From Octopus vulgaris (Eukaryota), in NCBI GenBank assembly GCA_951406725.2, contig OX597827.1:38006001-38070000 (forward strand): a DNA stretch of 64,000 nt, read 5' to 3'. The position numbers were made by a program, and so were the translations under genes. A model generated the notes under the pieces. It did not search any database, was not told where the DNA came from, and saw only the letters and a list, made by a program, of their open reading frames with translations. Every line of letters begins with the position of its first letter. Positions within the stretch are counted from its first letter, which is position 1. Shown in pieces: positions 5,337-60,914 of this stretch.

Positions 5337-5750
5337 TGTAGTGATGCTACTGTGTAGGGTTCACCGCGCATGCGCAGAATGGGACTACTTCCGGGTGGCC
5401 ACCGGAAGTCTTCCCCATGCACATGTGCGGGAAACGATCCCTAAGGCCCGCTAAACTCGATTCATTCTCTCTGGCCGTCAGCCCTCGTGAACAGACGTGC
5501 ATTCGTAGACTCTGATAATTACACCGACTTAGCCGCGGACGACATCGATCCACTTCAACCAACGAACAAGAAGCTGTACAACAGATTCGGCTGTCGTTTT
5601 CCCATCAGATATACGTACACCATCGCAATTAATAAACAAACTGCTGTCTTTCACCGATAACCTGACTTCGTCTGTTATATCTTACTAAATTGTATGTGAC
5701 GGGATCGGATCGACACCCTTTCAGTGATACCGATACCAGATCCTGTTACA
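5337..5750 (+). repeat. 5' LTR of Gypsy copy A
   Basis: TGTAGTG...GTTACA; about 9 mismatches to the 3' LTR by eye. Confidence 0.95.
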
Positions 5751-5752
5751 AT

Positions 5753-5762
5753 TGGTGACCCC
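5753..5762 (+). promoter_or_regulatory. Primer-binding site complementary to the tRNA-Trp 3' end
   Basis: TGGTGACCCC two nt after the LTR. Copy B has TGGTGACCCCGA. Eukaryotic tRNA-Trp ends ...UCGGGGUCACCA. Confidence 0.75.
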
Positions 5763-6134
5763 AAGTAGAAAAAAAAAAGAACAGAAGACGCAGCGAACAG
5801 GTTTTACCAGATAGAGCACTGAACACTGTTTCATTTTTCATTTTTCTTTTCCCTTCAGGACGGCGAGGTGGGTACAAACAAAAGCTTCATTCATCGCACT
5901 CAGTACACTGAAAAAAAAAAAAAGAAAACACACACATTATTTTTTTTCTTTTCTGTACCTTTGTTTTCCTTTGTGCACACACACACTTATTTTTTACTAC
6001 CCACGAGGTGCACTCACACACACACCAGTACACAAAACACCATTTTGATTTGCTTTGTCGGTTCCACGTGTTCTCTCTCCATTTCTCCTTCATACCTTCT
6101 GCCCCTCCTGACAGACTATCCTTCCGACAAAAAC

Positions 6135-6622
6135 ATGGCTGCATCAGGTTTGCCTTCATTCACGGGGGATGTGGGTCTGTGGTTTGCCCGGGTGGAGTGG
6201 TATTTTGACGCACATGCCATTTCTCCACAACAGCAGTTACATCTGCTATACTCCAGTTTACATCCCCGACTCGCCGCATCGGTCAGGGATCTCATAATAA
6301 GTCCCCACCCGGACGCCACATACGCGTCCGTGAAAGCAGAAATCCTCCGCCGCAACACGCGGTCGGAGGAGAGTAATTTTAAGGAGCTGATGGCCGATAG
6401 AATACTGGAAGTTCCGAATCCATCTCCATCGCGAGGCCTGTGCGCATGTATAGAGCCCCCCCTCCAGCACAAATTTCACTAGCCGAGCGGCTCGATGCGC
6501 TCACGCGGCGAATCGATGATCTATGCCGTGCAATCGGGCGCCGACCACGCAGTCGTAGTCGCTCTGCCGAAAGGGCAGAACGGTGTACCCAGCCGTGCAC
6601 TTCTCGGCCCTCGGAAAACTAA
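6135..6622 (+). pseudogene. Gypsy gag, internally deleted
   Basis: MAASGLPSFTGDVGLWFARVE...; aligns to gag of copy B (51327) with deletions. Confidence 0.85.
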
Positions 6623-9600
6623 ATCTGGAGAAGGTGAGCACGTCACCTTCTTCCATCTCTTTTCCCCAAAATCGTGCGTTCTTTGTAAAAGATCTGGTGT
6701 CGAAGAAATTCTTCATGGTGGACACCGGCTCTTGTTGCAGCATCTGACCCCTTCGTCTGGCTGCAGACAAGCCCAAGCGCTCTTCAATTGTCTTGCATGC
6801 CATTGACTCATCTCCCATAACAACCTTCGGTCAGATTTCGCTGCCCCTCGACATCAACCTTCGTCGAGATTTTCAATGGGTTTTCGTCATCGCTGACATC
6901 CCGCATCCTATTCTCGGCGCTGATTTCTTGGATAGGTTTAATCTATTGGTGGATGTCAGGCGTCGGAGGCTTCTTAACAGCACGACGTCGCTCTCGACGC
7001 CGACTGGGAGTTCCACCAATGCGGTCCTTAGCCCGACATTCTTTGTTGCCACCTCTGGAGACGCTTTTCACTCTCTTTTTGCTTCATTTCCGGAGCTATT
7101 GGATATTGCCTTTCAACCGGAAAAGCCTACCCACTCGACCCTTCATTTTATCACCACCACTGGGCCGCCTGCATTTTCGCGCCCACGGCGCCTTGCGCCT
7201 GACCGTCTAAAGACGGCTAGGGCCGAGTTTGAGCACATGCTTCAACTTGGCCTTATACGCCCCTCCACCAGCCCATGGGCGTCTCCCCTTCATTTGGCGC
7301 GAAAGGGCGAGTCTGATTTTCGCCCGGTTGGAGACTATCGACGCCTCAATGCCGTAACAATAGCCGACAGATATCCAATCAGAATTATACAGGACTTCAC
7401 GGCAAATCTCCATGGTTGTACCATTTTTTCGAAGGTCGACCTTATACGCGCGTACCATCAAATACCGGTCAACCCAGCCGACGTTCCGAAAACTACGATC
7501 ACTACCCCCTTTGGGTGTTTTGAGTTTTTGTATATGAGTTTCGGTTTGCGGAATGCAACTAGCACTTTCCAGCGTTTCATTGATGAGGTTGTCCGCGGTC
7601 TTGATTTTGTGTTTGCCTATGTCGATGATATACTCATTGCGAGCGACACACGTGAAAATCATCTCCAGCACCTTTCTCAGCTTTTTCAGCGTCTTCGCGC
7701 TTATAGTATACGTATAAATCCCGACAAGTGTGTTTTCGGACGCTCTTCTCTAGATTTTCTAGGCCATCATATTGATTCGAGTGGAATCAGCCCTCTGTCG
7801 TCAAAGGTCGATGCCATTCAACGCATCGCACCCTCACTTCCTTGCGCCAGCTCAGGCATTATCTAGGGATGATCAATTTCTACAAGCGTTTTATTCCCGG
7901 TTGTGCAGACAAGCTACTACCTCTCACGAGGCTATTAAAGGACACTCCAAGAAAGGACGGTCAAGTCACCCTCTCTGTTGAGGCAGTGACAGCCTTTGAG
8001 TCCATTAAGAAGGAGCTGGCTTCTGTTTCTTTGCTTGCACATCCGGTTCCTGGTGCTTCTCTCTCTTTGACTGTAGACGCATCGGACACTGCGATTGGCG
8101 CTGTGTTACAACACACAGTGGATGATCATATTCGACCTCTGGCTTTCATTTCCCGTCAACTGCAACCAGCTGAACGACGATACAGCACCTTTGATCGTAA
8201 GCTCCTAGCGATCTATCTATCGGTTCGTCATTTCCAGCATCAACTTGAAGGGCGAGATTTTGTGATCTATACGGATCACAAGCCCCTTACGTTTGCCCTG
8301 TGTTCAAAAACGGACAAACTCTCACCTCGTGCCTTCCGGCACCTGGATTTTATCTCTTAATTCACTAGTAACATTCGACACATACCTGGAAAAGAGAACG
8401 TTCCTGCTGACGCTCTCTCTCGCCTTCTAGTCTGCGCCCTTTCGTCTCCTGCTGCTATCGACTTAAGTGCCATCTCAGAGGAGCAGCCACCTTTGGCGTC
8501 GTTAGACTTAACTTCGCCCAGGTTCTCCTGTTGCCAGTTTTCCCACCCTCCGCTTCCGTCAGCCGAAGGCACCATTCTCGGTGATACTTCCACTGGTTCT
8601 CCCAGGCCACTCGTGCCTGAGAATCATCAACGCTCAGTGTTTGAAGCACTGCACTCCTTATCACATCCTGGCATCGCTGCCACCCTTAAACTAATCACTG
8701 CTCGGTTTTTCTGGCCGAATATGCGTCGCACTATTACTTCTTGGACACGCACCTGCTCCAAGTGTCAACGGTCCAAGATTCAACGGCACGTTCGTGCCCC
8801 GCTTGGACATTTTCCCCACGGAGGCCCGTTTTCGCCATGTCCACATCGATCTGGTTGGAACATGGCCTGTGAGTCGCGGGTTTTCTTATCTGTTAACTTG
8901 TGTCGATCGTTTCTCCCGCTGGCCAGAAGCCATTCCGATAGCAGACATTTCTGCTGAGACTGTTGCGCGAGCTTTCGTTTGAAACTGGATTTCCCGTTTC
9001 GGAGTTCCATCCAGATTGACTACAGATTGTGGACGTCAGTTTGAAGCTTCGCTATTTCGCGAATTGTCGCGCATTTTAGGTGTGCATCATATCCACACTA
9101 CTAGCTACCATCCAGCGTCTAATGGATTAGTTGAGCGGTTCCATAGACAGCTCAAGGCCGCTCTTCGTGCCTCTTCAGATCCACAGTCCTGGATTGAATT
9201 TCTGCCAATTGTGCTTCTCGGTTGTCGCACTGCTGTCAAGGCAGACCTGGGGTTTTCTGCTGCGGAGCTGCTGTATGGCACCACACTGGCATTGCCTGGT
9301 ACGATGTTGGTGCCAGACACTTCCCAGCCCCATGATCCGGCGACCTATGTCACCAGACTGCGTGCATATTTTTCGAACCTTCCACCCATGGTTCCCAGGA
9401 AGCAATCTCCACCATCCCATCTCTCACCGGATATGGACACTTGGTCGCATGTTTTTGTTCGGGACGACTCTGTGAAGGGGCCACTTGTTTCTCCCTATAA
9501 AGGAACTTTCCGTGTGCTTTCTCGCACACCAAAGGTTTTCACTATCGAGATAAATGGTCATTCGGAGACCGTTTCCGTGGACCGATTAAAAAAAGCACAT

Positions 9601-9825
9601 TTTGAGACGTCTTCATCTTTTGATGACAACCTTGCCACACCCACCTATGCACCTTTAACAACACCTTCACCTGCACAAACACCTTCACCTGCACAGACAC
9701 CTTTGCCTTCACCGGCTCCTACACCACCCTCGCCGTCAACGGGTGCCCCGAGCACACCGTATGTTACAAGATCGGGCAGCACAGTGCATTGGCCCAAGAA
9801 ACTTTCAAAGACAATCTATATTTAA
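6620..9825 (+). pseudogene. Gypsy pol (protease, RT, RNase H, integrase), frameshifted
   Basis: FMVDTGS protease, FAYVDD RT, TVDASD RNase H, HHCC motif and HIDLV..TTD..ERFH integrase spread over ORFs 6793, 7842, 8493, 8794 and 9016. Confidence 0.95.
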
Positions 9826-9959
9826 CTTTCTTTCAAATTTCTTGTTTTTGTATGATATTATGTAGCAAGTTTTCTGGGGGATCGGCAAGCCATCTGTTTT
9901 TCTGCAGCACCACCACAAATTTTCTTGTTGTCGTACTTCCGCACTCGAGGGGGGAGCCT

Positions 9960-10373
9960 TGTAGTGATGCTACTGTGTAGGGTTCAGTGCGCATGCGCAG
10001 AATGGGACTACTTCCGGGTGGCCACCGGAAGTCTTCCCCATGCGCATGTGCGGGAAATGATCCCTAAGGTCCGCTAAACTCGATTCATTCTCTCTGGCCG
10101 TCAGCCCTCGTGAACAGACGTGCATTCGTAGACACTAATAATTACACCGACTTAGCCGCGGACGACATCGAACCACTTCAACCAACGAACAAGAAGCTGT
10201 ACAACAGATTCGGCTGTCGTTTTCCCATCAGATATACGTACACCATCGCAATTAATAAACAAACTGCTGTCTTTCACCGATAACCTGACTTCGTCTGTTA
10301 TATCTTACTAAATTGTATGTGACAGGATCGGATCGACACCCTTTCAGTGATACCGATACCAGATCCTGTTACA
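9960..10373 (+). repeat. 3' LTR of Gypsy copy A
   Basis: Direct repeat of 5337-5750, preceded by the PPT. Confidence 0.95.
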
Positions 10374-11029
10374 AAACCATGCCAAAACAGACAGTGAGGC
10401 TTTGTGTAGTCCTCTGGCTTGCCAGCTCCTGTTGAGCTGTCCAACACATTGGCATGGACAAATGGATGTTAAATGATAATGATATATAATCCAAATAAGA
10501 GAAAGAAAGACTTTGACACATCTTTAATGATCAGTACCAACTCTTTTCTGTACCAACTCTGCTTTGAATGCCAGTTTATGCAAAAGTTCAAAGTGAAAAT
10601 TTATGTAATATTTGTGATCTTAGACATTAGAGTAGCACTTTCTCAGACCTTTATCAAATGTGCACTTTTACATGGTGTGTCTGCCAGACTTTGCATTTTG
10701 CTTATATCAGGAAGAAACAAAAAGTAAATAAAAGCATGGTTAGGGGATGAAAGAAAAAAATGATGACGAAAGAGGACAAGAACATTAAGAAGTTAAAGAT
10801 GGAGAATTGGTAGAAGCAGAAGAAAGAGAAAGCTAAACAAATAGTTGAATGGTAGAAGTGAGTTAGTGTTTACAATTACAAGTAAACCGACAGACGCCAG
10901 TATCAAATTACAATTGATGGGTGAAATATCATTTCAGTTTAGTACAAGCGACAAAATTAAAAAGGCTAAAAGGGAAAGAAGGATGAAATTAAAAACAATA
11001 GCAATACTAATAATAGGAAAAGGATAATC

Positions 11030-18784: not shown

Positions 18785-18885
18785 GACTGAATGTCAAGAA
18801 CAGATAAAAGGTTTCTATGGCCCCAAGTTTAAGAAGTTCAGTACAGAAGAGGAAGCTCTGGCTTTTGCAGAAATTCCGGCATCAG
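18785..18885 (+). CDS. RNASEH1: RNase H1-like exon: C-terminal half of the hybrid-binding domain
   Basis: tttcag|G TECQEQIKGFYGPKFKKFSTEEEALAFAEIPAS G|gtgaat; compare human [28 protein letters not shown]. Confidence 0.92.
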
Positions 18886-21800
18886 GTGAATAGAATTTTA
18901 GTGCTGTTTGGTATAATCAGTAGAGTGTTGAATGAATATCTTGTGGTATTTAGCTCAGTTTTTTATGTTCTGAGTTCAAATCCTAGTTAGGTCAATTAAC
19001 TTTCATCCTTCTGGGGCTCAATAATGGTCCAGTACTGAGATTGATATAGTCAGCTGTTCTCTCATTGTGACTTTGTGTCTGTATCAAAAAATAATTATTG
19101 TGCAGGTTTGGTTGTGTTGTGAAGAAGCTTGCTTTGCAATCATATGATTTCAGGTTCAGTCCTACAATGCTTGCATTTTGGGCAAGTGTCTTATACTATA
19201 GTCCAGGCTGACCAATACCTTGTGAGTGAATTTGGTAAACAGAACATGGACGATGCCAGCACCGCCTTGACTGGCTTCCATGTCGGTGGCACATAAAAAG
19301 CACCAATCTGATCGTGGCCGTTGCCAGCCTTGCCTGGCATCTGTGCCGGTGGCACGTAAAAAGTACCCAATACACTCATGGAGTGGTTGGCGTTAGGAAG
19401 GGCATCCAGCTGTAGAAACACTGCCAGATCAGACTGGAGCCTGGTGCAGCCTTCTGGCTTCCCAGATCCCCGGTCGAACCGTCCAACCCATGCTAGCATG
19501 GAGAACGGATGTTAAACGATGATGATGATGATGGAACTGAAGCCCATCACACAATGTGTGTCTGTCTTGTGTTTGTGTGCCCACCCACCATTGCTTGACA
19601 ACCAGAGTTAGTTTGTTTATGTGCCCATAACTTTGTAGTTTGACAAAAGAAACTGATGTAGTAAGAACCAGACTTTTAAAAGATTAGTACTGGCTCACTT
19701 TGTTCAACTAAATCGTTCAAGGCAGTGCATGGCTGCAATCCAAAAGCTGAAACAAATAAAGATGAAAGATTGCTGTCGTAGTAGGATTAGTAGTGTCAGA
19801 CAAAATGCTGTGCAGGTTTTGTTCCATCTCTTTCTATTGTGAGTTTAAATCCCACTATGATAAACTTTGTCTTTTATTTGTTGAGGGCCAATAAAAACAA
19901 AGTTCCAGTTAAGTACTATATTGGGCCACCATTAGTCAAGGTTAACCACATATCTGCTCTCGTGTGTATGTTTGGACAAGATTTTTGAAGAAGACTAGCA
20001 GATACCTATTCCAGTCATCCCATCATTTGATGCTCTTGTTATTGCCAACCCTTAAGCAAGGTAATATTTTCCCTCATAGCCAGACATGTTTTTCACAGGA
20101 GATTGGAGATAAATAGCATTGTTTTAATGATGGAGATGTTCATTTACAATCATCACATCACACACACAAGGAACTTCTTTTAGTTTCCATCTTACAAATT
20201 CACACTCATAAAGATTTCATTGGCTCAGGACTATAACAGAAGATATTTGGTCTAGGTACCACCCAGTGTCACTGAACCTGAAACCATGTGGATGACTAAC
20301 AAATTCTTAAATACACACACACACTCTCTCTCTCTCTCAGTAGATATATATTTAATAGTAATTTTCCCATTTTTGCTCTCCCAAGTAATTAGTGTTTTTT
20401 TTGTTAATATTATGTAACTAATTTGCTATTTTATTTATATATTAACAGACAAAACTCTCTCCAGTGTAGCAAAATCTATTCAACCGATTGTGAAAAAACT
20501 CATGTCCGGAGTGAAAGAAGTCTCTCCTCTCTGTCAGACACTGGTGTCAATGCTGACTGATTTGGATGACTCAGAAGAAAGCAAAGAATTTTCAATATTA
20601 GCATATAATGTTGAAAATTATTTAGATAAGTTGACAACAAGTGTTAAACTGGCAATTGATTCTAAGCTTTTGACAGGAACTACTAAGGGGAAGGCTTCTG
20701 ATTCATCTGAAGACGCATCAGAATCTCCTGAAAAGAAAAAGAGTGTTGAAGAAGGAGGTTTTACTGGTAATGTATCATGTTTTCATTCTCCTTTAAGAGA
20801 TTGTTAATATTTTATTATTATTTTTTTAAAATGAAAACTTGCAGCTTATTTTGCTTGGTATGATAAAAAGTGTCAGCTTCTCCTAGCCAGCAGGCTAAAG
20901 TGACACTTGTTAACTGATCATGGTTCAAGAACCCTGTGGAGAACTCTTGCAGTTCCAAGCAATGCTGATTTTTACAGGTGTTCTATTTTTACATTTGTAC
21001 CAATCTTCTTGAGCTGTATTGGTATTTGATAATTGCTGATTCTTCCACCTGCACCAATCACTATTTGTATCATGTCCACTCTCTCCATTGCCCATAACCT
21101 GTGTATTTCCCACTTCAATTCATCATAGTTGTTCACTTTTTCTTTTTCTTTCTCTTCGATCCTGTTATCACCAGACATGCTTGTCAATTATCAGGCATAT
21201 TTTATTTTATTTTCTGTTCACCACAACAATGTTAGGTTTCCATTGTCTAATCTGATGATCACACTGAATCATTGTATTTCACAGGGTTTTGCAATCTTCA
21301 TTCGCAGTAATTCCCTCTGAAATTTGGTCATACCATGTCTGATCTTTCTAGGCCATAATTTCCACAAATCTCCAATGGATCATTCTTGCCTCATTGTCTT
21401 GTCGTCTTTGTATTTACAGTGTGCTGATTTTGGTTATTCACTAACAATGCACACTGTTTCACTCCTCTCACCATTCATTTGGCATTTGTCACTCTTAGTT
21501 GTGTTATCAATTTTGCACTTTAAATAGTTTGTCCTCAATGCTTGTTCTTGTGCTGTGCATATAAGTGCTTCTGTGTCTGTCTTGGAGCTCATATCTCTTG
21601 CAAACTGATTGTACTTTTTTTGTGTTCTTTTCTTCTTTAGATTTCTCTTTCTTAACACAATTATCAATTTTGATGATTTTGGACTTCTTCACATGTATCA
21701 GCAATGGTTCGGTGGCATTTTTTACATATCATCCTAAGCTGCTTTTCTCTGCTTCAACACAATCCCAACAACTGATCAATTCCCCCCACCCTTTCTTCTA

Positions 21801-24282
21801 TAAGTATCACTCTTGGAATAAATTGTTCCATGATCTGTCAATAGCTTCCATGACTTCATATTCATACTCATCAGTGTCAATAGTTTCTGTGTCTTTGAAT
21901 CCATACTCATCATCATCATCATTATTATTGCAATCCCTACCAAGATCTACTTTGCCATTCACCTCTCCATGGTTAATAAAATAATGTACTTGTCAGTTAC
22001 AAGGATTGATTTAATTGACTGATCTCTTCCTGCAAACTTCAGGTTTTGTGCCTATATTAGAAACAATTATTATTATTGGGGATTGGTAGAATCAGTAGAG
22101 CATCAAGAAAATTTCTCACAAGTGTTTGCTCTGGCTCTTTATGTCCTGAGTTCAAATTCTGCCAATGCAAACTTTGTCTTTCATCCTTTCAGAGTTGACC
22201 TTGAACTCACCAATCAAGTAAGTTTAAGGTCAATGGTTTTGACTAACCTGCTCCCCTCAAAAATGTTGGCCTTGTACCAAAATTAAAATCATTGGTATAG
22301 TCTCTCACCAACACTTCTCAGCCTCTGGGTCACAAACATGCTATTCCCTCACTCTGCCTTTTCTACCACTGATGCTGTGGTTTCTGCTCTTTGGAGCTGG
22401 CTGGTCTCAAGCTAACTTCTCTCATCTCTATCTTACTCTCCTCTGCCATATTCTGTCTAACTACTATGCCCAAGCCTACTTCACCAGGACATCAGTCTTT
22501 TGAAATCTACTTGCTACTCTTCTTTTCCTGAAGTTGTATATAAACATAAACCACATTGATCTCATTGGTTTTGGAAGATTTGTCAGCTATTGGTAGAGCC
22601 CTTCCTCACAGTAAAATTGATAAAAAAGAAACAGCTTAACAATTACATTCACTCATTTGTCTCACCCTAAATATTCTCCCTAGAGATTACACTCTCCATA
22701 ATTTCTAGCCAGTTCATAGATGATTTATATAAAGAGCCAGGCAACAATATATTTTATATAATTTCTATAAAGAGCCAAGCTGCAATATATTTTTATATAT
22801 AATTTATGCAAATTTTTTATTTACAGGGAAAAAATTGGCTGATGATGATAAAGATGTTTTCATTGCTGGCAGCTGTTTCAACAATGGTAAACCTAATGCC
22901 TCAGCTGGACTTGGTGTCTACTGGGGAGAAAGAGAAAAGTAAGTTTTTTGTTGTTGTTTTGTTTCTTGTTAGCGCTTGACTAATAGTCACATAACAACAT
23001 GGGATGGATGGGGATAGAGCTAGAAATATAGAATGTGGTCCCCCATTTCTATTTATTCTTTGGGAACAGAAGGATTATTGTGCCTTTATAGATTTGAATT
23101 GTTTCAATATATCGCTTAGTAATGTTTCTATAAGCCATAACCTATCTGTCTTTTGTATATTTAGGACTACTTTATATAGTTTATCTTTTATGTAAAACAG
23201 TAAGGCTGTGATATGATGGGAAGAAACTTAGCAGATTTTCCTAGGAGATTGAGTGGGCAGAAACAGCAAGGATGAGGGGGAATAATTTCTTTGGCATCAA
23301 GGAGGAATTGCAAGTGAAAAAGCATCTGTTGGGGTACATCTGTGTTGAGGAAAATAAGGAGTCTCCGATTTTACAAATTTATAGTTATGCTGGTTTCAAA
23401 TTTCACCCTCATGTAATGTGTGGTCCATCCATCACATATAGATTCCTTTGTTTGCTCAGTTGAAGATTTTGTCAGTGTCAAGAACAACATTGCCTGGACT
23501 GAGTTGCAGTATGGTGGTCATATTAAGATAATGGCACCTAATTTACTCCTTTAATTCATGTATATCTTTGTCATAATAAATATCCCTCACCCCTCATACT
23601 CTCCATCACAAATTAACTGGTAAGTCTTCACTTTATGTATTAAAGTTTGTTAAAATGTTGGTTTGTATATTGATAGGTGTTTCAGGGTGTGAACATTGTA
23701 TATACTCTTTTTGTGTATGAATGTGTGTATATAGTGTGTGTAAATGTGTATATTTGTATGTCTGTAAATGTGTATCAATCGTATCATTTTTGTGAAACCT
23801 GTCTTCCAGTTCGCTTCACTCACCCCTCTCTGCATGTATATTTGTATAAACACAGATTGGGGGGGGGGGGGGCTAGTAGTTAGTGTTGAACTTGTGAATG
23901 TGAGATCATTTCCTGGACTGGGCTGCTTGTTGTGTTCTTGAGTAAAACATTTTGTCTCACGTTGCTCTGCAATCACTTTGACATCTGATGTATGACACAT
24001 CATCCATCTGTACAAACAGTGTTAATTTGATGGAGGGAGTGACCTAATGTGCAGTACAAACTTTTGATCTCTATAAGCATCATCTGTGCAGGTGTTTCAT
24101 TGAGAGTCCATGTATGTACAGACACACATATATTTCTCAGCACTATTTTTAACACAAAAATATGAATCGCTATTCTGTTCACATATCTCTTTCTTTCCCC
24201 CTCTCTCTCTCTGTTTGTCTTTCCCCCTCTCTCTCTCTGTTTGTCTTTCTCTGTATAATGACATGTGTATACACATTCACAC

Positions 24283-24330
<48 letters not shown>

Positions 24331-27300
24331 GTATGAATATGACACAATATTATCTATCTGTCTGTATACATATGTATGTTTATACAGAAACTCATTTATC
24401 AACAAAATCATTAAAGATATTTAGTCAATTGGAGATATGACTATAGAAAGCATGAAATGTTTTATTTTCGAAAGCATTAGCTTTATTTAACTAAATGTTT
24501 CTAACAATCACATAGAGAAATTTGTGTTTATCTGTGTACATACATTCACACATACTGAGAGACAGCTAGATAATGAATACAGTTATATTCATAAGAATGG
24601 GTATGTGTGTAGTGTATCATTGTATAGGGAATGAAAGACTTGACAGACTGAAAGAATGGAGATTCTTATTTTTTTACTTTGAATGTGCACGATGGTGTAT
24701 AGTGTGTGTGTGTGTGTATGATGATATATGTCGGATTGTGTGTATGTCTGTAGGTGAGTATATATGATGGTGTATGTTGCTTTGTGTATGTATATGATTG
24801 TATTTGAAGATGTATATTGGTTCATTGCTTCATATGATAAAAAGCAGTGTAATTTTTATTAGTCAGCAGAATTACTAAGTCTAGCATGCTCTGTTTTTAC
24901 AGGAACACAAGTGAAAGACTTGGTGGCCGACAAACAAACATTCAGGCTGAAATAAATGTAAGCCATTCTATTTAAGTTTTCAAGTGAAAGTAATGAGAGA
25001 ATTATTTGTTGGGAAGCTCCGCATTAATTGACACCTTGTGTGTGGTTTTGGGTGACTTCATCTGAAGGCACAAAAACTCTTCCCCTTCTTGCTATTGTAA
25101 CTTCAACCTTTATATTTAAGCATCTAGAGATGTTTTTGTTTTTGTTTAGTCTTTATCTAAAATGAAATTATTTTGTTTGCAGGCTGCCATTAGAGCTGTT
25201 GAACAAGCAAAGGCCAAAAATATTTCAAACCTTACTATCAACACTAGTAGTGAGTTCATAATGAACAGTAAGTTATGTTTGTTTCTCCTATGAATCAACT
25301 AATCCTTAACCTATTTAGTGTTTGTGGATGTTATTCCCTAACTTCTTTCATTTGGAACCCAAGTATTTTACTTCTATCAGTGAATGTCCAGAGGATCTCT
25401 TAGTGTTGTGTGTGACTGCATCCTATTGCAAAATTACTATATGTTAAGGTTGAAGAAGAAAATTGAGCGTGTTATTCACCTTTAGCAGCAGGGCTTTTTA
25501 CAAGTAGTCTTCCAGGAACAAATTGGCAGGACTTACTACAGATGTTTATGTGTTTGTTGGTCAGCTTCATTGTAGCAAATAGCAGCTGGAGCTACACTTA
25601 TCTTTGCTCTTCACAGAATATTTGTACAAGTAAATCTGTTACAGGTAATATTTATGTGGAATACTTTTGTTTTTATTTTTCAGTTTGTTTATCAACTTCT
25701 CATTCATCATAATATTGTTATTTCTGTTTGTATAGCTGTGCTTGGGAAGACTCATTGAACCAAGTGACACCATAGTCACGACCATTGCCAGTGTCATGTG
25801 AATGGCACCTGTGAAATCGTAGTCATGGCTGTTACTGGTGTCATGTAAAAGGTGCCCATGCCAGTGGCACATAAAAAAGCACCCATTACACTTTCGGAGT
25901 GGTTGGTATTAGAAAGGGCATCCACCTGTAAAAACCATGCCAAATCAGACTGGAATCTGGTGCAGCTTTCCAGCATGCTACTTCCAGTCAAACCATCTAA
26001 CCCATGCCAGCATGGTAAACAGACATTAAATGATGATGATAATGATGATAGCCACACCCACATCTCTCATGTCACAGGCATTATTTTATTAACCATACAT
26101 ATCTTGGAACTATTGGGTCATCCCATAAATAATGTGGTTTTTTTGTACTTCTTTTATTTTTCAAAATTAAGATAAACAAAATTATTTTCTAGTCTAAAAT
26201 ATACTCTCCTTCATTTTCTACAATGCTCTTCCATATATCTGGTAGACCTTCCCCTCTTCCAAAATTCACTTGTCTGTGATGAAAAATACTCCTCCAGTAC
26301 AGTTCTGACCTCATCTGCAGAATTCCTATTTTTTAGCCCAAATAATTTTGAAGACTGTGTGTTACTGTCTTTTTGTGTTGACATGGTGTAATAGTTGTAA
26401 ACAAATGTCATTGCCATGCAAGCAGTGTCCTTTGTTTCTAATCTTCTATGGTCTTGAGGAAATATTACTTTACTTAGAAACAAAGTAAGGGTTGACAATA
26501 GGAAATGCATCTGGCTGTAGAAAATCTGCCTTAACAATTTCAGTCTGATCCATGCAAGTATGGAAAAATGGATGTTAAATTATGATGATGATGGTTTCTC
26601 TGGTGTTTGCTGTCATTATTGACTTCCATGATAATTACTTTGTGTATTTGTGCATCTTAATCATGAGAAAAGTGGGTCCTTAATCTGAGCATCAACACTT
26701 CAGAGCTTGCAATAAATTTAAATTAAAAGGAACCAAGAGATTAACACAAATACTTGCAACAGAATAAGTTAGAGGCCATTAGTGACCAGAGGGTAGTGTT
26801 ACGCTGGGTGGGATTTTAAATGTAACACCAACGAGTTAGGCCTAAGACAATAATGTTAAATCTGTTCCTTCTCTCCCTCACACCAGGTATGACTAAATGG
26901 TTGAAGACTTGGAAAAAGAATAACTGGACGAAATCAGATGGAAAGGAACTGATAAACAAAGAAGATCTGCAGAAATTGGATAAGAAATTGGAGGGAATCA
27001 ATGTTAAATGGGTAAGTTTAAGCAGGACGAACTGGGAAGCTAAAAGAAAACTCTATCATGACATCTAAACCAACTGAAGGATTTTATTCTGTGTGTGTGT
27101 GAGAGAGAGAGAGAAAACATGTTTGATTGTGTGCTTTGTTTTTTTTTTTCCATTGTGGTCTAATTAGAAGAGGTTAAGATTACTTATCAAGGTTTGCAAA
27201 GATTTTGGTAAGAGATTAGAAAATCTGACTGTAATTTTGGAGGAGAAAAATTTTTCAGTCTGTGTGCTTTTCACCTTTCCTACTGATCATCTTGATGATA

Positions 27301-29312
27301 TAGTAGAAGTTGATGATGGTATGAGGGGTTTCTTCCATATGTTGCAGACTGTTAGGTTTGGTTGTGTGAGCAGTGTGGAAGGACATATCTAGGAGAATGG
27401 TTTCAGTCTCACATTTAACTGTCTGACATATGCATACTTGCTTTTCTCCTCCCTCATTCAAATTTTATTCTTTTCTGTGCCAGCTATTTCTCATCTATTT
27501 CCAGTTCATCTGTTGTTCAGACTACATTCTATATTCCACCTTCACACACTGAAAAGTATTATTTGGTTGATAACCAGATGAGAAGAGGAGAGAGTGGAAG
27601 CAAAAAGACTTCCAGTTACTGTGGCTCTAAGTCTCCCTGCTAAGTTTCTTTATAACCACTACTTTTCTTCAAACCTCTCCAACATCAACAGTAGTTCAAC
27701 TACCAATTATTTTACACTGATGACATCTTGCCTCACCTTTCTTTGTACTTATTCTCATCACATTTCTTTCCTCTCTCACTCCTCCTACACCAATGCAGCT
27801 ACTGTTGAGGATGAGCAGTTTTCCATCCCTAAATTTTGCACTAATTTCTGTTGTCACCTGCCCAAATCCATAAAATTAAATATTAAAAAATTATTGATCT
27901 ATTTCTCACCTCAAAGCTTTTACTTCATTATCAGAGAAAAGGGAGGAGAGAGCATCTAAGTAGTAACAACTTGCTAGAAAAAGCTAAATTTCTCTTAAAT
28001 CACACCCTGCTGTCTTGGAATAGGACATACTTCAGAAAAGATGCATGGCCTTGGCTAGAATACCTTTGGTCATAAGTCTGTTCAATTAGGGTTAAAACAA
28101 CAACATTTTTAGAGTTGCACCTCACAGAATGCTCCAACTTACAGCTAATCAAAGCACAACAACCCTTGCCAGTTCTCTGGTACCTCAACTCACTGGTTGA
28201 CACTCTACCAGTTCTACACTGATGACCCTTCACAACACATGTTTCACCTCTGCCACACACATCCTTAACTCTCTTAAGTTTGTTTCAACTACTGAATGAA
28301 CTAGCACAAAGAATTACAAGGTTCCAGATGAACTAGTCTCATTGACAGATTGTCAAAGAACTCTAGAAGAATTAAATGTCATTTTAATCTCTGATTAAAA
28401 ATTTTAGTAGATGCCTAGAAAATTTTTCATGTCTAAAAATGTTAGTAATAACTTTCTATTATTCAAAGAAACAAGAAACTTTTCTTTAATAACCAATTAA
28501 AATAGTCATAAACAGTTGTTATTATATATTGCCTAGCACTTAGAAGAAAAGGGTTTTAAAGAAAATAGTGTATTTGAATGGTTGTTTTTAATTTAAAAAA
28601 ACACTATTTTATGAATGAATCAATGCTTAAAATTTTAGACATGAATTTGAAACAGAAAAGGCAAGATACCTACTTAACTCTTTTGAGAGAAATATTAGTA
28701 TAATTTGTAACTTGATTAACCAAGGAATGGTCAGTACTTAATAACAAACCAGTGGGACTGGTTTATTGTAATTAGAATTATTATTAAAAGAAAGAAAAGT
28801 GTTGGCCTTGTGCGAAAATTAGAAAGAATTATCAATATTAAGGTTCATAGAAATGAATTGTGTTCATGGCCCATGTAGGCCCTCTAAGAGTGGTTAAGTT
28901 GGCTGCTTCAAGTTGATTGCTACAGAAAGAACTAGGGCAGGAAGGGAATTCCAATGGGATGTTATTCAGGGAAGGGAGGGAGTTGGAAATGATTATTGTA
29001 GGCCTGGGAATACAATATGCATGTTTCAAATTGGTACTAATAATGTTTAGAGATTTTTAAAATTATTATTTTATTTAATTTTATAGTTTAATGAGAGTTT
29101 CTCTAATTTCTATTCTCAGTCTCCGCATAGGAGAATAAAAATAGATAGGCTGTGGATAGCCTCCTCCTCTTTACATCAACAAATAAATATAAAAATTATT
29201 TTGATTGTATATTATTTCTATTTCCTAGGTCCATGTGGATAAACATTGTGCTGGATGCAAAGCTGCTGACAATTTGGCCAATAAAGGAGCAAAACTTCCT
29301 CTACCTGAGTAG
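18785..29312 (+). CDS. RNASEH1: RNase H1-like gene, coding exons 2-8; predicted catalytically impaired
   Basis: Seven GT-AG exons with consistent phases: 18785-18885, 20449-20766, 22827-22938, 24903-24957, 25183-25267, 26887-27011, 29229-29312. They encode a hybrid-binding domain, a linker and an RNase H domain. Exon 1 was not found upstream within the window. Confidence 0.93.
19105..19770 (+). mobile_element. CORE SINE with a nested RTE-tail SINE (about 19245-19532)
   Basis: CORE SINE 5' half, an inserted (GAT)n-tailed repeat, then the CORE SINE 3' half. Confidence 0.7.
20449..20766 (+). CDS. RNASEH1: RNase H1-like exon: long connecting region
   Basis: ttaacag|AC...ACT G|gtaatg. Phase 1-1, 318 nt, open (DKTLSSVAKSIQPIVKKLMSG...EEGGFTG); joins the flanking exons in frame. 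Confidence 0.8.
20890..21830 (-). mobile_element. R4/Dong-like (restriction-like endonuclease) non-LTR retrotransposon 3' fragment
   Basis: TEALICTAQEQALRTNY...DKC...ETV..IVSE zinc-knuckle region and GDNRIEEKEKEKVNNYDELKWEIHRLW endonuclease region. Confidence 0.75.
22827..22938 (+). CDS. RNASEH1: RNase H1-like exon: first catalytic strand with Asp->Ala
   Basis: KKLADDDKDVFIAGSCFNNGKPNASAGLGVYWGERE; compare human [29 protein letters not shown]. Confidence 0.92.
24903..24957 (+). CDS. RNASEH1: RNase H1-like exon (catalytic Glu retained)
   Basis: NTSERLGGRQTNIQAEIN; compare human NVGIRLPGRQTNQRAEIH. Confidence 0.92.
25183..25267 (+). CDS. RNASEH1: RNase H1-like exon with TDS->TSS
   Basis: AAIRAVEQAKAKNISNLTINTSSEFIMN; compare human [28 protein letters not shown]. 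Confidence 0.92.
25735..26050 (+). mobile_element. RTE-tail SINE or truncated RTE
   Basis: GTGGCACATAAAAAAGCACCC...GGGCATCCACCTGTA...(GAT)n. Confidence 0.7.
26190..26345 (-). mobile_element. mariner transposase C-terminal remnant
   Basis: DEVRTVLEEYFSSQTSEFWKRG...IVENEGEYILD*. Confidence 0.6.
26887..27011 (+). CDS. RNASEH1: RNase H1-like exon (basic protrusion)
   Basis: MTKWLKTWKKNNWTKSDGKELINKEDLQKLDKKLEGINVKW|gtaagt; compare human [27 protein letters not shown]. Confidence 0.95.
29229..29312 (+). CDS. RNASEH1: RNase H1-like terminal coding exon
   Basis: cctag|VHVDKHCAGCKAADNLANKGAKLPLPE*; compare human [30 protein letters not shown] signals follow near 29347, 29474 and 29573. Confidence 0.92.
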   Translation, partial: VHVDKHCAGCKAADNLANKGAKLPLPE

Positions 29313-31019
29313 ATTTTCCTGCATGTTGTTATTTGAAATGTCAACAAATAAATCATAAAGTCACACACACACAAACACAGTCTCTCTCTCTTGCACAGAT
29401 ATAGTGATAAGCATAATCTTACAATAATACTTTCCAAACATCCTCTCACAAAGATATATAGTAGTATTTCTACAATAAAAGATATATGCATTCATAATTT
29501 AGTTCATGTGGTTATTTCTTGTTGGTGCGTCAAATAATTATGATAAAAGTGGCATAATTGAAATATGTTTACAATAAAATAGCAGAGAAAATATAAAGAC
29601 TCCAGTTACAAAGAAAAAGTGATTAGCCAGTCATCTGGCAAACAATGTGCTATTCTGATACTTTCTGTGGGTCTGTTTCTCTTTTCTAACCAAAATTAGT
29701 TTTTATGTCTGTGTATCATCATTATTTTTATATCCCATTTTTCAGACAGACATAGGTTGGACAAGACTACAACACTAGCAAATCTACCCATCTATGATGG
29801 GGACATAAAATGAGGGAGGGCGGTCACAAGAGCAGTATGTATTGAGAAATGTATAAATGGACTTGATAGATTATTGGGTGATGTCTTAAAGAAATCACAT
29901 TATTGTTGGTGATGCAGCATTCTATTGCAGCTACATGACATGTTTGCGACTAAGTGACGTGATGACAATTCACTCCCGAACTGAAATAAGCTCCTAGCCC
30001 CTGTATCCTGAATGGTTATGGGGACCACACCTAACAAAAGCCAGACCTTCCTTCAATCACTACACAAAAAGTATTAAGAAAAAAAATGTTATTTAGATAT
30101 ACTTTTATTTTAGTTGTTTACGCTATTTTATGCAGGCTTATAGTCTTAAACATTCAAAGTTCACAAATTTCCTTATTTAAATTGTGAATCATATTCCTTT
30201 CAATAATATCAATATGATTACAAAACTTCTTTGTAGACGATATTTTCTCTTTGTTCGACACTAATTTTCAAATTACTGGAGTCCTTTTCTCTACTCATGG
30301 CGACATATAACTGGCTGTGTGTAAACATCAGAACAGGTAAAAATACTCCTACACGATCTAAAGTCTGGCCTTGTGCCTTGTTTGCTGTGAATGCACAAGT
30401 AGAATCTTTAGGTATCTGCCCATCTACGATGGGAAATAAAGGGATAGTATCGCAAATCTAAACCCTCTAAATTCACGAACTATATAGGGAGGGGAATCCA
30501 GAGTTAATCCTCGTTACTGGAATTTAAGAAAAAAATCAAAGGTGATTTATTGATACAAAACTCGATATACACTAAATAATCATACTTCTTCACATTTTTT
30601 CCTATTTACCTCCTTTGTAATCCGGCCATTTGACCATGAAAAGGGAGCAGACAGACGGAAAGACATAACACTCATTATAAGAAGTTGACTTACTTCCCTT
30701 TACTTCTTTTATTAGTTATCTCCCCCGTAATTTTTATTTACTTTTTTACACCTGTGAACTGAACAATTACCTTCAGTATCCAGTAATAATCGTAATTTTT
30801 CATGTTTTTTTCACTAAAAACTTCCTTGATTTCCTCCTTCATAATTCTGAAAAACACTGGTCCAGCTCTTTGACCATGAAGAGGGCAGAGACAGATGGAT
30901 ATAACGCCCATTATAGTAAAATGATATCCTTCCTGTCACCAACTCTTGTTTTTTTCTTTTTTTAAGTAAGGTATTTTTATTCCATTAGTATTAACATGTT
31001 GCTGCCAATGAAACTTGAG

Positions 31020-50504: not shown

Positions 50505-53500
50505 TGTAGTGATGCTGCTGTGTATGGTTCAGCGCGCATGCGTAGAATGGGACTACTTCCGGGTGGCCACCGGAAGTCTTCCCCATGCGCATGTGCGGGA
50601 AACTGACCCCTAAAATACCGTCCACTCATTCAGTCTCTCTGGCCCTGATAGCCCTCGTGAACAGACGCGCATTGGCAGTCTCTGAGAACTATGCACTGAC
50701 TTAGCAGCGGACCACATCGAACCACTTCGACCAGCCAACAAGAAGCAGTACAACAGATTCGGCTGTCGGTCCCCCTCAGAAATACGTACACCAGATCTAC
50801 ACCATCACGAGTAATAAAACAACATTTGCTGTCTTTCCCAGATAACCTGACTTCGTCTGTTATATTTAACTAAATTGAATGTGACGGGATCAGATCGGAC
50901 ATCCCTTCAGTGATATCGATTCCAGATCCTGTTACAATTGGTGACCCCGAGTAAAAAAAAAAAGAACAGAAGACGCAGCGAACAGGTTTTGCCAGTTAGC
51001 ACACTGAACACTCAGTTTCATTATCATTTTCTTTTCCTTTCAGGACAGCGAAGGTGCGTACAAACAAAAGTTTTATCCATCGCACTCAGTACACTGAAAA
51101 AAAAAAAACAAAACACACACACACATTATTTTTTTTCTTTTCTGTAGCTTTTGTTTTTCCTTTGTGCACACACACACCTATTTCTTTACTACCCACGAGG
51201 TGCACACACACACACACCAGTACACAAAACACGATTTTTTTTTGGTTTGCTTTGTCGGTTCCACGTGTTCTCCACTTCTCGTTCTTACCTTCTGCCCCTT
51301 TCTGACAGGCGATTTTTCGGACAAACATGGCTGCATCAGGTTTGCCTTCATTCACAGGGGATGCGGGTCTGTGGCTTGCCCATGTGGAGTCGCATTTTGC
51401 CGCACATGCCGTTCCTCCACAGCAGCAGTTGCATCTGCTATATTCGAGTTTGCCTTCCCGACTCGCCACATCGGTCAGGGATCTCATAATGAGTCCCCAC
51501 CCTGACGCCGCATACGCGTCAGTAAAAGCCGAAATCCTCCGCCGCAACACGCGGTCGGAGGAGAGTCAATTTAATGAGCTGATGGCCGACGAACAGTTGG
51601 GGGACAGGACTCCATCCCAGTTCCTGCACCACCTAAGGGAGCTAAGCGGGAACGGAGCAGACGCACCACTCTTGCGGAAGATTTTCTTCTCCAGGTTGCC
51701 TGCCCACGTGCAGACAATGTTGGCCACGGCACTGGAGTCTGTGTCAGTAGACCAGATTGCCACGATGGCCGATAAAATATTAGAATTTTCGGGACCATCT
51801 CCATCGCGAGGCCTGTACGCATGTACAGAGCCCCCTCCGACATTTTCTCCGACACAAAATTCTCTAGCCGAGAGGATCGATGCACTTACGCAGTGAATCA
51901 ATGATCTGTGGCGTGCGATCGGGCGCCGACCTCGCAGTCGTAGTCGCAGTGGCTCTGTTTCTCGTAGTCGGAGTGACTCTGTTTCTCGTTCCGGCTGGTG
52001 CTGGTACCATTCCAAGTATGCCGAAAAGGCAGAACGGTGTACCCAGCCGTGCACTTTCCAGCCCTCGGGAAACTAAATCAGGAGGAGGTGAGCACGTCAC
52101 CTTCTTTCTCGTTTCCCAAAAATCGTGCGTTCTTTGTAAAAGATCTTGTGTCGAAGAAATTCTTCATGGTGGACACTGGCTCTTGTTGCAGCATCTGGCC
52201 CCTTCGTCTGACTGCAGACAAGCCCAAGCGCTCTTCAATTGTCTTGCATGCCATTGACTCGTCTCCCATAACCACCTTCGGTCAGATTTCGCTGCGCCTC
52301 GACATCAACCTTCGTCGAGATTTTCAATGGGTTTTCGTCATCGCTGACATCCCGCATCCTATTCTCGGCGCTGATTTCTTGGATAGATTTAATCTATTGG
52401 TGGATGTCAGGCGTCGGAGGCTTCTTAACAGCACGACGTCGCTCTCGACGCCGACTGGGAGTTCCACCAATGCGGTCCTTAGCCCGACATTCTTTGTTGC
52501 CACCTCTGGAGACGTTTTTCACTCTCTTTTGGCTTCATTTCCGGAGCTATTGGATATTGCCTTTCAACCGGAAAAGCCTACCCACTCGACCCTTCATTTT
52601 ATCACCACCACTGGGCCGCCTGTTTTTTCGCGCCCACGGCGCCTTGCGCCTGACCGTCTAAAGACGGCTAGGGCCGAGTTTGAGCACATGCTTCAACTTG
52701 GCCTTATACGCCCCTCCACCAGCCCATGGGCGTCTCCCCTTCATTTGGCGCGAAAGGGCGAGTCTGATTTTCGCCCGGTAGGAGACTATCGACGCCTCAA
52801 TGCCGTAACAATAGCCGACAGGTATCCAATCAGAATTATACAGGACTTTACGGCAAATCTCCATGGTTGTACCATTTTTTCGAAGGTCGACCTTATACGC
52901 GCGTACCATCAAATACCGGTCAACCCAGCCGACGTTCCGAAAACTACGATCACTACCCCTTTTGGGTGTTTTGAGTTTTTGTATATGAGTTTCGGTTTGC
53001 GGAATGCTACCAGCACTTTCCAGCGTTTCATTGATGAGGTTGTCCGCGGTATTTATTTTGTGTTTGCCAATGTCGATGATATACACATTGCGAGCGACAC
53101 ACGTGAAAATCATCTCCAGCACCTTTCTCAGTTTTTTCAGCGTCTTCGCGCTTATAGTATACGTATAAATCCCGACAAGTGTGTTTTCGGACGCTCTTCT
53201 CTAGATTTTCTAGGCCATCATATTGATTCGAGTGGAATCAGCCCTCTGTCGTCAAAGGTCGATGCCATTCAACGCATCGCACCTCCCACTTCCTTGCGCC
53301 AGCTCAGGCATTATCTAGGGATGATCAATTTCTACAGACGTTTTATTCCCGGTTGTGCAGATAAGCTACTTCCTCTCACCAGGCTATTAAAGGACACTCC
53401 TAGAAAGGACGGTCAAGTCACCCTCTCTGTTGAGGCAGTGACAGACTTTGAGTCCATTAAGAAGGAGCTGGCTTCTGTTTCTTTGCTTGCACATCCGGTT

Positions 53501-55865
53501 CCTGGTGCTTCTCTCTCTTTGACTGTAGACGCATCGGACACTGCGATTGGCGCTGTGTTACAACACACAGTGGATGATCATATTCGACCTCTGGCTTTCA
53601 TTTCCCGTCAACTGCAACCAGCTGAACGACGATACAGCACCTTTGATCGTAAGCTCCTAGCGATCTATCTATCGGTTCGTCATTTCCAGCATCAACTTGA
53701 AGGGCGAGATTTTGTGATCTATACGGATCACAAGCCCCTTACGTTTGCCCTGTGTTCAAAAACGGACAAACTCTCACCTCGTGCCTTCCGGCACCTGGAT
53801 TTATCTCTCAATTTACTAGTAACATTCGACACATACCTGGAAAAGAGAACGTTCCTGCTGACGCTCTCTCTCGCCTTCTAGTCTGCACCCTTTCGTCTCC
53901 TGCTGCTATCGACTTAAGTGCCATCTCGCAGGAGTAGCCACCTTTGGCGTCGTTAGACTTAACTTCGCCCAGGTTCTCCTGTTGCCAGTTTTCCCACCCT
54001 CCGCTTCCGTCAGCCGAAGGCACCATTCTCGGTGATACTTCCACTGGTTCTCCCAGGCCACTCGTGCCTGAGAATCATCAACGCTCAGTGTTTGAAGCAC
54101 TGCACTCCTTATCACATCCTGGCATCGCTGCCACCCTTAAGCTGATCACTGCTCGGTTTTTCTGGCCGAATATGCGTCGCACTATTACTTCTTGGACACG
54201 CACCTGCTCCAAGTGTCAACGGTCCAAGATTCAACGGCACGTTCGTGCCCCGCTTGGACATTTTCGCCCCTACGGAGGCCCGTTTTCGCCATGTCCACAT
54301 CGATCTGGTTGGACCATGGCATGTGAGTCGCGGGTTTTCTTATCTGTTAACTTGTGTCGATCGTTTCTCCCGCTGGACAGAAGCCATTCCGATAGCAGAC
54401 ATTTCTACTGAGACTGTTGCGCGAGCCTTCGTTTCGAACCGGATTTCCCGTTTCGGAGTTCCGTCCAGATTGACTACAGATTGTGGACGTCAGTTTGAAG
54501 CTTCGCTATTTCGCGAATTGTCGCGCATTTTAGGTGTGCATCATATCCACACTACCAGCTATCATCCAGCGTCTAATGGATTAGTTGAACGGTTCCATAG
54601 ACAGCTTAAGGCCGCTCTTCGTGCCTCTTCAGATCCACAGTCCTGGATTGAATTTCTGCCAATTGTGCTTCTCGGTTGTCGCACTGCTGTCAAGGCAGAC
54701 CTGGGATTTTCTTCTGCAGAGCTACTGTATGGTACCACTCTGGCATTGCCTGGTACGATGTTGGTGCCAGACACTTCCCAGCCCCATGATCCGGCGACCT
54801 ATGTCGCCAGACTGCGTTCCTATTTTTCGAATCTTCCACCCATGGTTCCCAGGAAACAATCTCCACCATCCCATCTCTCACCGGATATGGACACTTGGTC
54901 GCATGTTTTTGTTCGGAACGACTCTGTCAAGGGACCACGTGTTTCTCCTTATAAAAGACCTTTCCGTGTGCTTTCTCGAACACCTAAGGTTTTCACCATT
55001 GAAATAAATGGTCATTCGGAGACTGTTTCCGTGGACCGACTGAAGAAAGCATACTTTGAGGCGTCTTCATCTTTTGATGACAACGTTGCCACACCCACCT
55101 ATGCACCTTTAACAACACCTTCACCAGCGCCGACACCTTCACCTGCACAAACACATTCACCTGCACAGACACCTTTGCCTTCACCGGCTCCCACAACACC
55201 ACCTTCGCCGTCAACGGTGCCCCGAGCACACCGTATGTTACAAGATCGGGCAGAACAGTGCATTGGCCAAAGAAACTCTCAAAGACAATTTATATTTGAC
55301 TTTCTTTCAAATTTCTTGTTTTTTGTAGTATATTGTGTACCAAATCTTCTGGGGGATCGGCAAGCCGTCTGTTTTTCTGCAGCACCACTACAAATTTTCT
55401 TGTTTTCGTACTTCCGCACTCGAGGGGGAGCCATGTAGTGATGCTGCTGTGTAAGGTTCAGCGCGCATGCGTAGAATGGGACTACTTCCGGGTGGCCACC
55501 GGAAGTCTTCCCCATGCGCATGTGCGGGAAACTGACCCTTAAAACACCGTCCACTCACTCAGTCTCTCTGGCCCTGGCAGCCCTCGTGAACAGACGCGCA
55601 TTGGCAGTCTCTGAGAACTACGCAGCGACTTAGCAGCGGACCACATCGAACCACTTCGACCAGCCAACAAGAAGCAGTACAACAGATTCGGCTGTCGGTC
55701 CCCCTCAGAAATACGTACACCAGATCTACACCATCACGAGTAATAAAACAACATTTGCTGTCTTTCCCAGATAACCTGACTTCGTCGGTTATATTTAACT
55801 AAATTGAATGTGACGGGATCGGATCGGACACCCCTTCAGTGATACCGATTCCAGATCCTGTTACA
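50505..55865 (+). mobile_element. Ty3/Gypsy LTR retrotransposon copy B (full length, defective)
   Basis: 432-bp LTRs at 50505-50936 and 55434-55865; TSD GCTT; PBS TGGTGACCCCGA; PPT GAGGGGGAG; gag from 51327 with a premature TGA at 51894; pol with YVDD->NVDD and frameshifts. Confidence 0.97.
52067..52110 (+). promoter_or_regulatory. -1 programmed ribosomal frameshift signal (gag-pol)
   Basis: Slippery heptamer G GGA AAC directly before the gag TAA, followed by the stem-loop AGGAGGAGGTGA-GCACG-TCACCTTCTTTCT. pol is in the -1 frame. Confidence 0.75.
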
Positions 55866-58300: not shown

Positions 58301-58416
58301 TGCAGATAGTGTTCTATTTTTATAAGACATCAGTGCTAGTTGCTGGCCTCTTAAGACGCCCGACCGCTATTTTAAATACACTCAAGCCTGCTTGCTGCTT
58401 AGATAATTTTATCGTC

Positions 58417-58469
58417 ATGTCTGACTATCCTGTGAAAAAAGGACGTGAACCCGGGGTACATGAGACACG
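58417..58469 (+). pseudogene. RNASEH1: RNase H1 first coding exon, copy 1 (degenerate)
   Basis: ATG..MSDYPVKKGREPGVHET-CG|gtgaga matches the hybrid-binding-domain start (F/Y)YAVxxGRxxGV(Y/F)xxW. Its phase-2 donor fits the exon at 18785. Confidence 0.8.
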
Positions 58470-58617
58470 GTGAGACAATATTATTATTAATAATTATTTG
58501 CTCATATAATTTGCCATTAATAGCCGACGAGAATGTATCGTGGCTCTCCACTCCGATATTCGAAACTTTGAGTACTATAATGACAACCTTTTACTGTTTG
58601 TTCTAAATTATAATATA

Positions 58618-60861: not shown

Positions 60862-60914
60862 ATGTCTGACTATCCTGTGAAAAAAGGACGTGAACCCGGG
60901 GTACATGAGACACG
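60862..60914 (+). pseudogene. RNASEH1: RNase H1 first coding exon, copy 2
   Basis: Identical to 58417-58469. Confidence 0.8.

Follow-up and report, generated by a model that had tools for sequence, protein, structure and literature searches.

The RNase H1 gene that lies in the 64,000-nucleotide stretch of Octopus vulgaris DNA analyzed here (the window) arose by recent tandem duplication, lacks two of the catalytic aspartates and, judging from codon comparisons, has been under positive selection on its catalytic face; on this basis and on a predicted fold, we estimate a probability of about one half that it encodes a folded, non-cutting competitor or decoy acting against a retroelement or a virus. 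The gene, termed copy B here, is a real homolog of RNase H1, but it does not have the active site by which that enzyme is defined, and in kind it is a pseudo-nuclease. At the four catalytic carboxylates D-E-D-D, which are complete in its neighbor copy A, copy B has A-E-S-D.

When two exons and a full-length ortholog were searched against the genome (G000), three RNase H1 copies were recovered, all on contig C14 and all in one orientation. Copy A (C14:37,922,196-37,956,785), about 78 kb upstream of copy B, has a full D-E-D-H-D active site, the loop histidine included, and is the kind of intact paralog for which the preliminary description of this DNA had recommended a search. Copy B, the middle copy, reads A-E-S-H-D and has the same exon structure as copy A. 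Copy C (C14:38,076,468-38,137,214; A-E-S-C-N) is also dead and is more damaged than copy B: its first ATG and its exon 3 acceptor are gone, and its hybrid-binding motif is broken. Although the genes are separate, they appear as isoforms in the public annotation, since the model CAI9732839.1 (P0003) joins exons 1-5 of copy A to exons 6-8 of copy B; with at least one such chimeric model, the pattern described below is hidden in that annotation. As a chimera of this composition, P0003 was rejected as a genuine half-dead isoform. The public 'isoforms' P0003, P0010 and P0016 all join active-copy exons to dead-type exons, which may be an annotation artefact or real cross-copy splicing. A search of the genome for the PF00075 family, in which the spliced copies went undetected, gave eight matches elsewhere (L001-L008); these are RNase H domains without introns that are probably retroelement-borne.

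Within the window, copy B has seven exons with AG/GT ends and matching phases, just as first described, and they join into an open 292-codon frame closed by a TAG stop at 29310-29312. What had been missed is an eighth, first coding exon far upstream, outside the window; the full protein, from eight coding exons, reaches 341 residues. All 14 splice sites are kept, there are no stops or frameshifts, and the N-terminal presequence and both start codons are retained. The features are as follows.

C14:37,990,837-37,990,982, copy B exon 1, outside the window and 33.8 kb upstream, carrying both start codons.
18785-18885, + strand, copy B exon 2, second half of the hybrid-binding domain, with FKKF at 18828.
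20449-20766, + strand, copy B exon 3, long linker of cephalopod type, predicted to be helical and then disordered.
22827-22938, + strand, copy B exon 4, start of the RNase H domain; of its 112 bases, copy A differs at 14 and copy C at 17.
22865-22867, + strand, GCT codon for Ala, where copy A has GAT for the first catalytic Asp.
24903-24957, + strand, copy B exon 5, with the catalytic Glu retained at 24949-24951 and the NR before it changed to IQ.
25183-25267, + strand, copy B exon 6, with an AGT Ser at 25246-25248 replacing the third catalytic residue (GAT in copy A).
26887-27011, + strand, copy B exon 7, basic protrusion with three Trp retained; 11 of 41 residues differ from the O. sinensis counterpart of copy A.
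29229-29312, + strand, copy B exon 8, with His and the last Asp retained, a two-residue loop deletion and the stop codon.
29347-29352, + strand, AATAAA, 35 bases past the stop, candidate poly(A) signal.

Further AATAAA hexamers follow at 29474 and 29573, in agreement with the poly(A) signals noted before. The two substituted codons read as had been reported, and the residues said to be kept, namely the glutamate, the last aspartate (29268-29270), the Trp-rich basic protrusion and FKKF, are all present. Two motif readings have to be amended. The first concerns the residues ahead of the glutamate, given earlier as QTNQRAE turned into QTNIQAE: IQ is there, but the ancestral motif according to the intact octopus copy is NNRAE, not NQRAE. 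The second concerns the GHSG loop, which is indeed remodeled, with two residues lost and A>K, N>C and E>K relative to the intact octopus copy, but which keeps its histidine (29244-29246). The shortened loop (29238-29258) reads His-Cys-x-x-Cys; at this site copy C and dead forms of O. sinensis have Cys-Cys. Across the exons tested, the protein equals the public CAI9732840.1. Exons 4, 7 and 8 are distinctive in sequence, with no more than 37% of their 31-mers in common with copy A or C.

Both domains of copy B are recognized well above the Pfam cut-offs: 73.6 bits against 21 for the hybrid-binding domain (PF01693) and 88.1 bits against 25.8 for the RNase H domain (PF00075). Structure prediction, proposed earlier for the metal site, yields a canonical RNase H1 fold, with block pLDDT of 85-98 across the catalytic domain and human RNase H1 as the best match (6VRD and 8SWC, target TM 0.92 and 0.95; rmsd 1.0-1.2 Å for the top two matches). 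The prediction used a 58-sequence alignment made up almost wholly of active enzymes, which favors a canonical fold, so the model speaks for fold compatibility and is not proof. By analogy with the human enzyme, which is inactivated by loss of the residue equivalent to Asp210, copy B is very likely without cleavage activity; human D210N is inactive and yet binds hybrids strongly (accessible part of PMC8266564).

Chance or assembly error is an unlikely source of the Ala and Ser codons, because D-E-D-H-D is kept in 112 of 115 homologous domains (from 112 proteins among the matches listed, of 174, with eight octopus models set aside) and because the same Ala and Ser recur in copy C and in O. sinensis models. 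The first three carboxylates are kept in 130 of 135 aligned domains from 130 further representatives; among the remaining five are two tardigrade proteins and two extra domains belonging to a single protein. The tardigrade proteins, OWA51828.1 (P0227) and XP_055329058.1 (P0199), are RNase H1-like with carboxylates lost and resemble copy B in architecture or domain; extra domains of P0130 and P0019, as well as P0224, are likewise RNase H1-like with catalytic residues replaced, and the second domain of P0130 has the TDS-to-TSS change seen in copy B. These dead forms, about 36-43% identical to the octopus protein, arose independently of it. With so few exceptions among the surveyed domains, tardigrade proteins among them, dead RNase H1-like proteins appear to be rare, yet of more than one origin.

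Close relatives of copy B are confined to octopods among the proteins retrieved. Exon 3 as a query gave ten proteins among 223 candidates, all octopod RNase H1 or RNase H1-like and headed by CAI9732840.1, while the catalytic domain gave 11, ten annotated octopod models and one distant protein. O. sinensis yielded 11 proteins, five of which, one per distinct type, were compared; one keeps the first three carboxylates and four are dead. The replacements at the catalytic positions differ among these four, and the Ala and Ser of copy B, for which other species were to be searched, occur among the models of the sister species O. sinensis, which may be chimeras of adjacent copies. Among the proteins searched from O. 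bimaculoides and Argonauta there was no dead form and one intact protein each. Compared with O. bimaculoides, 12 of 149 domain residues are changed in copy A and 38 of 146 in copy B; exons 4-7 of copy A equal the active O. sinensis model at 124 of 124 residues.

Introns date the duplication. Divergence between copies A and B ranges from 2.9% (introns 2-7; 203 of 6928 sites) to 3.6% (intron 1), and between B and C it is 0.4-1.1%. At a rate of 0.0036 substitutions per site per million years (accessible part of PMC13282606), the A-B duplication is 4-5 million years old under a per-lineage reading of the rate and 8-10 under a pairwise one. This age predates the split of O. vulgaris from O. sinensis, 2.5 million years ago, and postdates that from O. 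bimaculoides, about 34 million years ago (available part of PMC10700109) or alternatively 13-34 million years ago (PMC13282606, likewise in part). Gene conversion has probably shortened the B-C distance, because a B-type exon 4 (2 of 36 residues differ) and a C-type exon 3 (3 of 93 differ) each have a near match in O. sinensis. Around the coding exons, the window holds the following features of the cluster.

5337-10374, + strand, Ty3/gypsy-like LTR element in copy B intron 1, with LTRs 97.8% identical; also in copy C intron 1.
27426-28252, no strand assigned, 827-base inversion in copy B intron 7 relative to copy C; the match to copy A is reversed too.
58324-58469, + strand, copy C exon 1, first of seven tandem copies, with the first ATG lost and the hybrid-binding motif broken.
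60769-60914, + strand, copy C exon 1, second tandem copy.
62709-62854, + strand, copy C exon 1, third tandem copy, with a period of about 1.94 kb from here onward.

The seven first exons of copy C, 97-98% identical, extend over 58324-64000 of the window and C14:38,064,324-38,077,157, and each is preceded by a CpG-rich piece of a dispersed repeat whose end looks like the start of an LTR in antisense orientation. Intron 4 of copy C is filled by a 25.7 kb array of 333-base units more than 99% identical (C14:38,106,477-38,132,211). Another Ty3/gypsy-like element (LTRs 97% identical), nested in an older truncated one, is duplicated in both cluster spacers (window 50505-55936 and C14:37,981,239-37,986,579) and is 94% identical to the intron 1 element. 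After the cluster comes a C2H2 zinc-finger frame of about 228 residues (C14:38,183,104-38,183,790), with the breakpoint of the duplication just upstream of its coding exon.

Copies A and B differ over the whole frame by 60 replacement and six silent changes, of which 45 and two, respectively, fall in the RNase H domain; the counting omega for this domain is 6.4-8.5 (Fisher p 1e-3 to 7e-5). The corresponding changes are 53.5 and 2.5 for A-C and 31 and 0 for B-C. Tested with a pairwise codon model, the domain departs from omega = 1 in each pair (p 6e-5, 1e-5 and 3e-5), although the pairs share branches and so are not independent, and the magnitude of omega is imprecise owing to the few silent changes. 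In the N-terminal part omega is 1.24, 0.82 and 0.92, and omega = 1 was not rejected. A dN/dS near 1 had been named in advance as the mark of a recent pseudogene; copy B has a domain omega far above 1, with no stop, frameshift or lost splice site.

Introns provide a neutral yardstick for these counts. Replacement sites of the A-B domain have changed 4.6-fold more often than introns (45/334, or 13.5%, against 203/6928; p 6e-16), silent sites (6/255) are in line with the intron rate, and B-C differences are concentrated in exons (35/461 sites in exons 4-8 against 27/7115 in introns 3-7). CpG decay through methylation and A-to-I editing were both rejected as the source of the changes, as only 4 of the 49 in exons 4-8 between A and B are CpG-type and 8 are A>G. 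Because the replacement excess sits in exons, silent sites keep to the intron rate and the spectrum is that of neither CpG decay nor editing, neutral decay and assembly error are rejected, and the comparison argues for strong positive selection on the RNase H domain of the dead copies. When 37 variable domain residues were scored as stem, single-branch or ambiguous, leaving out ten three-state sites, 21 mapped to the B+C stem and one to copy A; the changes thus fell on the dead lineage, as the comparisons with O. bimaculoides and O. sinensis also show, and copy A was conserved. Selection for positive charge is not indicated, since the gain (+3 to +8) lies within chance (p ~0.2). The maintained pseudo-nuclease of the preliminary description therefore survives in part: neutral decay is rejected, but in place of purifying selection we find a positively selected domain and an N-terminal omega of 0.8-1.2.

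As also proposed there, the changes focus on the active site. Of the 62 sites that lie no more than six residues from any of the five catalytic positions, 38 are changed in one or more of the six dead forms, compared with 26 of 82 elsewhere (p 4e-4). The same limit gives 8/62 near and 17/82 elsewhere for two octopod orthologs and 12/62 and 30/82 for three squid- or cuttlefish-like orthologs. For copy B by itself the clustering is modest (p 0.024, 0.024 and 0.12 at three window widths). Its RNase H domain has 40 changed positions and retains 36 of the 44 residues with 90% conservation or more; the eight altered ones include both aspartates and Thr, Gly, Asn and Glu beside catalytic positions. 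Long stretches of strands 2 and 3, the long helix and the last helix-strand never changed, and the three Trp, the Ser and the Asn of the basic protrusion are retained in copies B and C and in four dead O. sinensis models. The catalytic positions themselves read AESHD, AESCN, AVSCD, YESCE, YVNCE and AVNCE in the six dead forms, none being constant. The Arg, Thr, Asn, Ser and Trp positions kept in copy B are presumably the DNA-strand contacts of RNase H1. For Trp221 such a contact is described in the available text of PMC8960830.

In copies B and C, duplication has been followed by repeated positive selection concentrated on one face, as would be expected of a restriction factor or decoy paralog. 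In the reading we prefer, the empty, remodeled cleft would bind without cutting. Its target might be RNA:DNA intermediates formed by retroelements dependent on the RNase H of the host. Alternatively, copy B would act as a decoy for a parasite protein aimed at the RNase H cleft. A partner that keeps changing would drive the dead copies apart and leave copy A conserved, and copy B would be transcribed from a new promoter. The continued divergence of the dead copies on one face fits such an evolving partner and does not fit a fixed reader role. A protein that did no more than shield hybrids would hardly be expected to diversify in this way, the backbone of a hybrid being unable to evolve; a parasite-protein decoy may account for the diversification better. 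LINEs without their own RNase H depend on that of the host, mainly H2 and partly H1, with H2 and not H1 the chief LINE-1 helper in human cells (accessible part of PMC6068448); given this dependence, a non-cutting competitor could restrict LINEs, and O. vulgaris has many recently active ones (PMC13282606, in the part available). More tentative is the fuller history in which duplicates of the vulgaris/sinensis lineage became a fast-evolving family of restriction factors or decoys that do not cut; in this history a captured Ty3/gypsy LTR would have switched on copy B, and variants would have been shuffled among the copies one exon at a time.

The preliminary description had seen in the gene a housekeeping reader or damper, which binds hybrids as D210N does and protects R-loops or tunes copy A. 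The high-scoring hybrid-binding domain, its retained Tyr, Trp and FKK residues, the strong binding of human D210N and the kept DNA-contact positions all speak for it. Nevertheless, a reader needs a single mutation, whereas 45 have accumulated and copies B and C have diverged further. The hybrid-binding domain keeps its key residues in copy B but has four replacement and no silent changes relative to copy A; in copy C it is broken, and the four dead O. sinensis models compared either have it changed or lack it. With an N-terminal omega near 1, the domain and the linker appear to evolve almost neutrally. Both the near-neutral N-terminal part and the broken domain of copy C weaken a plain R-loop reader, which we regard as doubtful.

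Whether copy B is expressed bears on a second alternative, a past adaptive burst that left the gene silent in a cluster undergoing birth-and-death turnover, with copy C further along. The duplicated unit starts 84 bases ahead of the first ATG of copy B, and about 99 bases ahead in copy C; it takes in the splice acceptor, but both copies lack the CpG-rich region upstream of copy A, which we infer to be the promoter of copy A. The 1.5 kb ahead of copy B is instead a 95% copy of the region upstream of the zinc-finger frame and holds two splice-flanked exon-like segments; 1.26 kb with the putative promoter of the zinc-finger gene is missing, and in its place stands a truncated Ty3/gypsy element, the LTR of which points towards copy B and belongs to a family with at least 40 full-length matches. 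Transcription could be driven by this LTR, or copy B could be spliced from the non-coding first exon of copy A. Splicing of one upstream exon-like segment (C14:37,990,724-37,990,840) to exon 1 would create a short upstream frame ending on the first ATG and would favor the second start codon. Among the 24 sequencing runs listed for exon 3, none is on record as RNA. A silent relic would be in line with the loss of both promoter regions, with the missing ATG and acceptor of copy C and with an open frame that, after 60 replacements, would be only mildly unlikely (p ~0.04) in the absence of selection. Against it stand the intact frame and splice sites, the copy B-specific replacements, which postdate the B-C split with no silent domain change, and the possible expression route offered by the sense LTR and the upstream segments, so that we assign it a low probability.

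Unlikely, too, is a selfish or reproductive gene, in which a dominant-negative RNase H1 would act in germ cells through segregation distortion, sperm competition or mitochondrial inheritance. That the dead duplicates are young and tandem, have an omega above 1 and carry a new LTR-linked upstream region would suit this class, by analogy with known distorters. The presequence and both start codons are kept, but with no replacement and one silent change relative to copy A, the presequence has too few changes to prove constraint. New chemistry, with the cleft rebuilt for another substrate or metal and the protein not simply dead, could draw on the His-Cys-x-x-Cys loop beside the retained Glu and Asp and on the Cys-Cys of other dead forms; it is very improbable in view of the lack of any constant catalytic position. 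Neutral decay, selection to switch off a toxic extra dose and assembly artefact are scarcely credible, even with a near-neutral N-terminal part and chimeric public models such as P0003 across the cluster, as decay caps omega at 1, one stop would silence a copy, and errors would not be limited to exons, spare silent sites and recur in O. sinensis.

In the literature covered (titles and abstract openings, mostly outside subscription journals) we found nothing about RNase H1 copies of octopuses or about dead RNase H1 paralogs under positive selection, and the accessible part of PMC13560373 has nothing on paralogs; a search on the comparison with Cutoff drawn below returned no relevant paper. Copy B shares with eukaryotic RNase H1 (human 2QK9, 6VRD and 8SWC) the order of PF01693 and PF00075, the predicted fold, the Trp-rich protrusion and two in-frame start codons. 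It differs in the loss of two of four carboxylates, a shorter loop, an omega far above 1, its multi-copy state and the lack of the parental promoter region. Like the engineered D210N, or dRNH1, probe (PMC8266564, as far as accessible), it has lost the third carboxylate and kept the hybrid-binding domain; it is natural, however, with 40 changed domain positions and not one, and is a candidate binder. Strong conservation is the rule for RNase H1, and a dead version is familiar mainly as a laboratory probe. Copy B catches the transition from enzyme to pseudoenzyme in nature, a few million years old and with the intact parent adjoining as a clean control, and the pattern points to an unknown conflict around RNA:DNA hybrids in a genome rich in active retroelements. 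The closest precedents may be Drosophila Cutoff and Maelstrom (the latter with an RNase H-like fold), dead-nuclease paralogs in transposon defense. They belong to other families and are far older than copy B, yet they too evolve fast and reuse a nuclease fold as a binder, as is proposed here, by analogy, for copy B.
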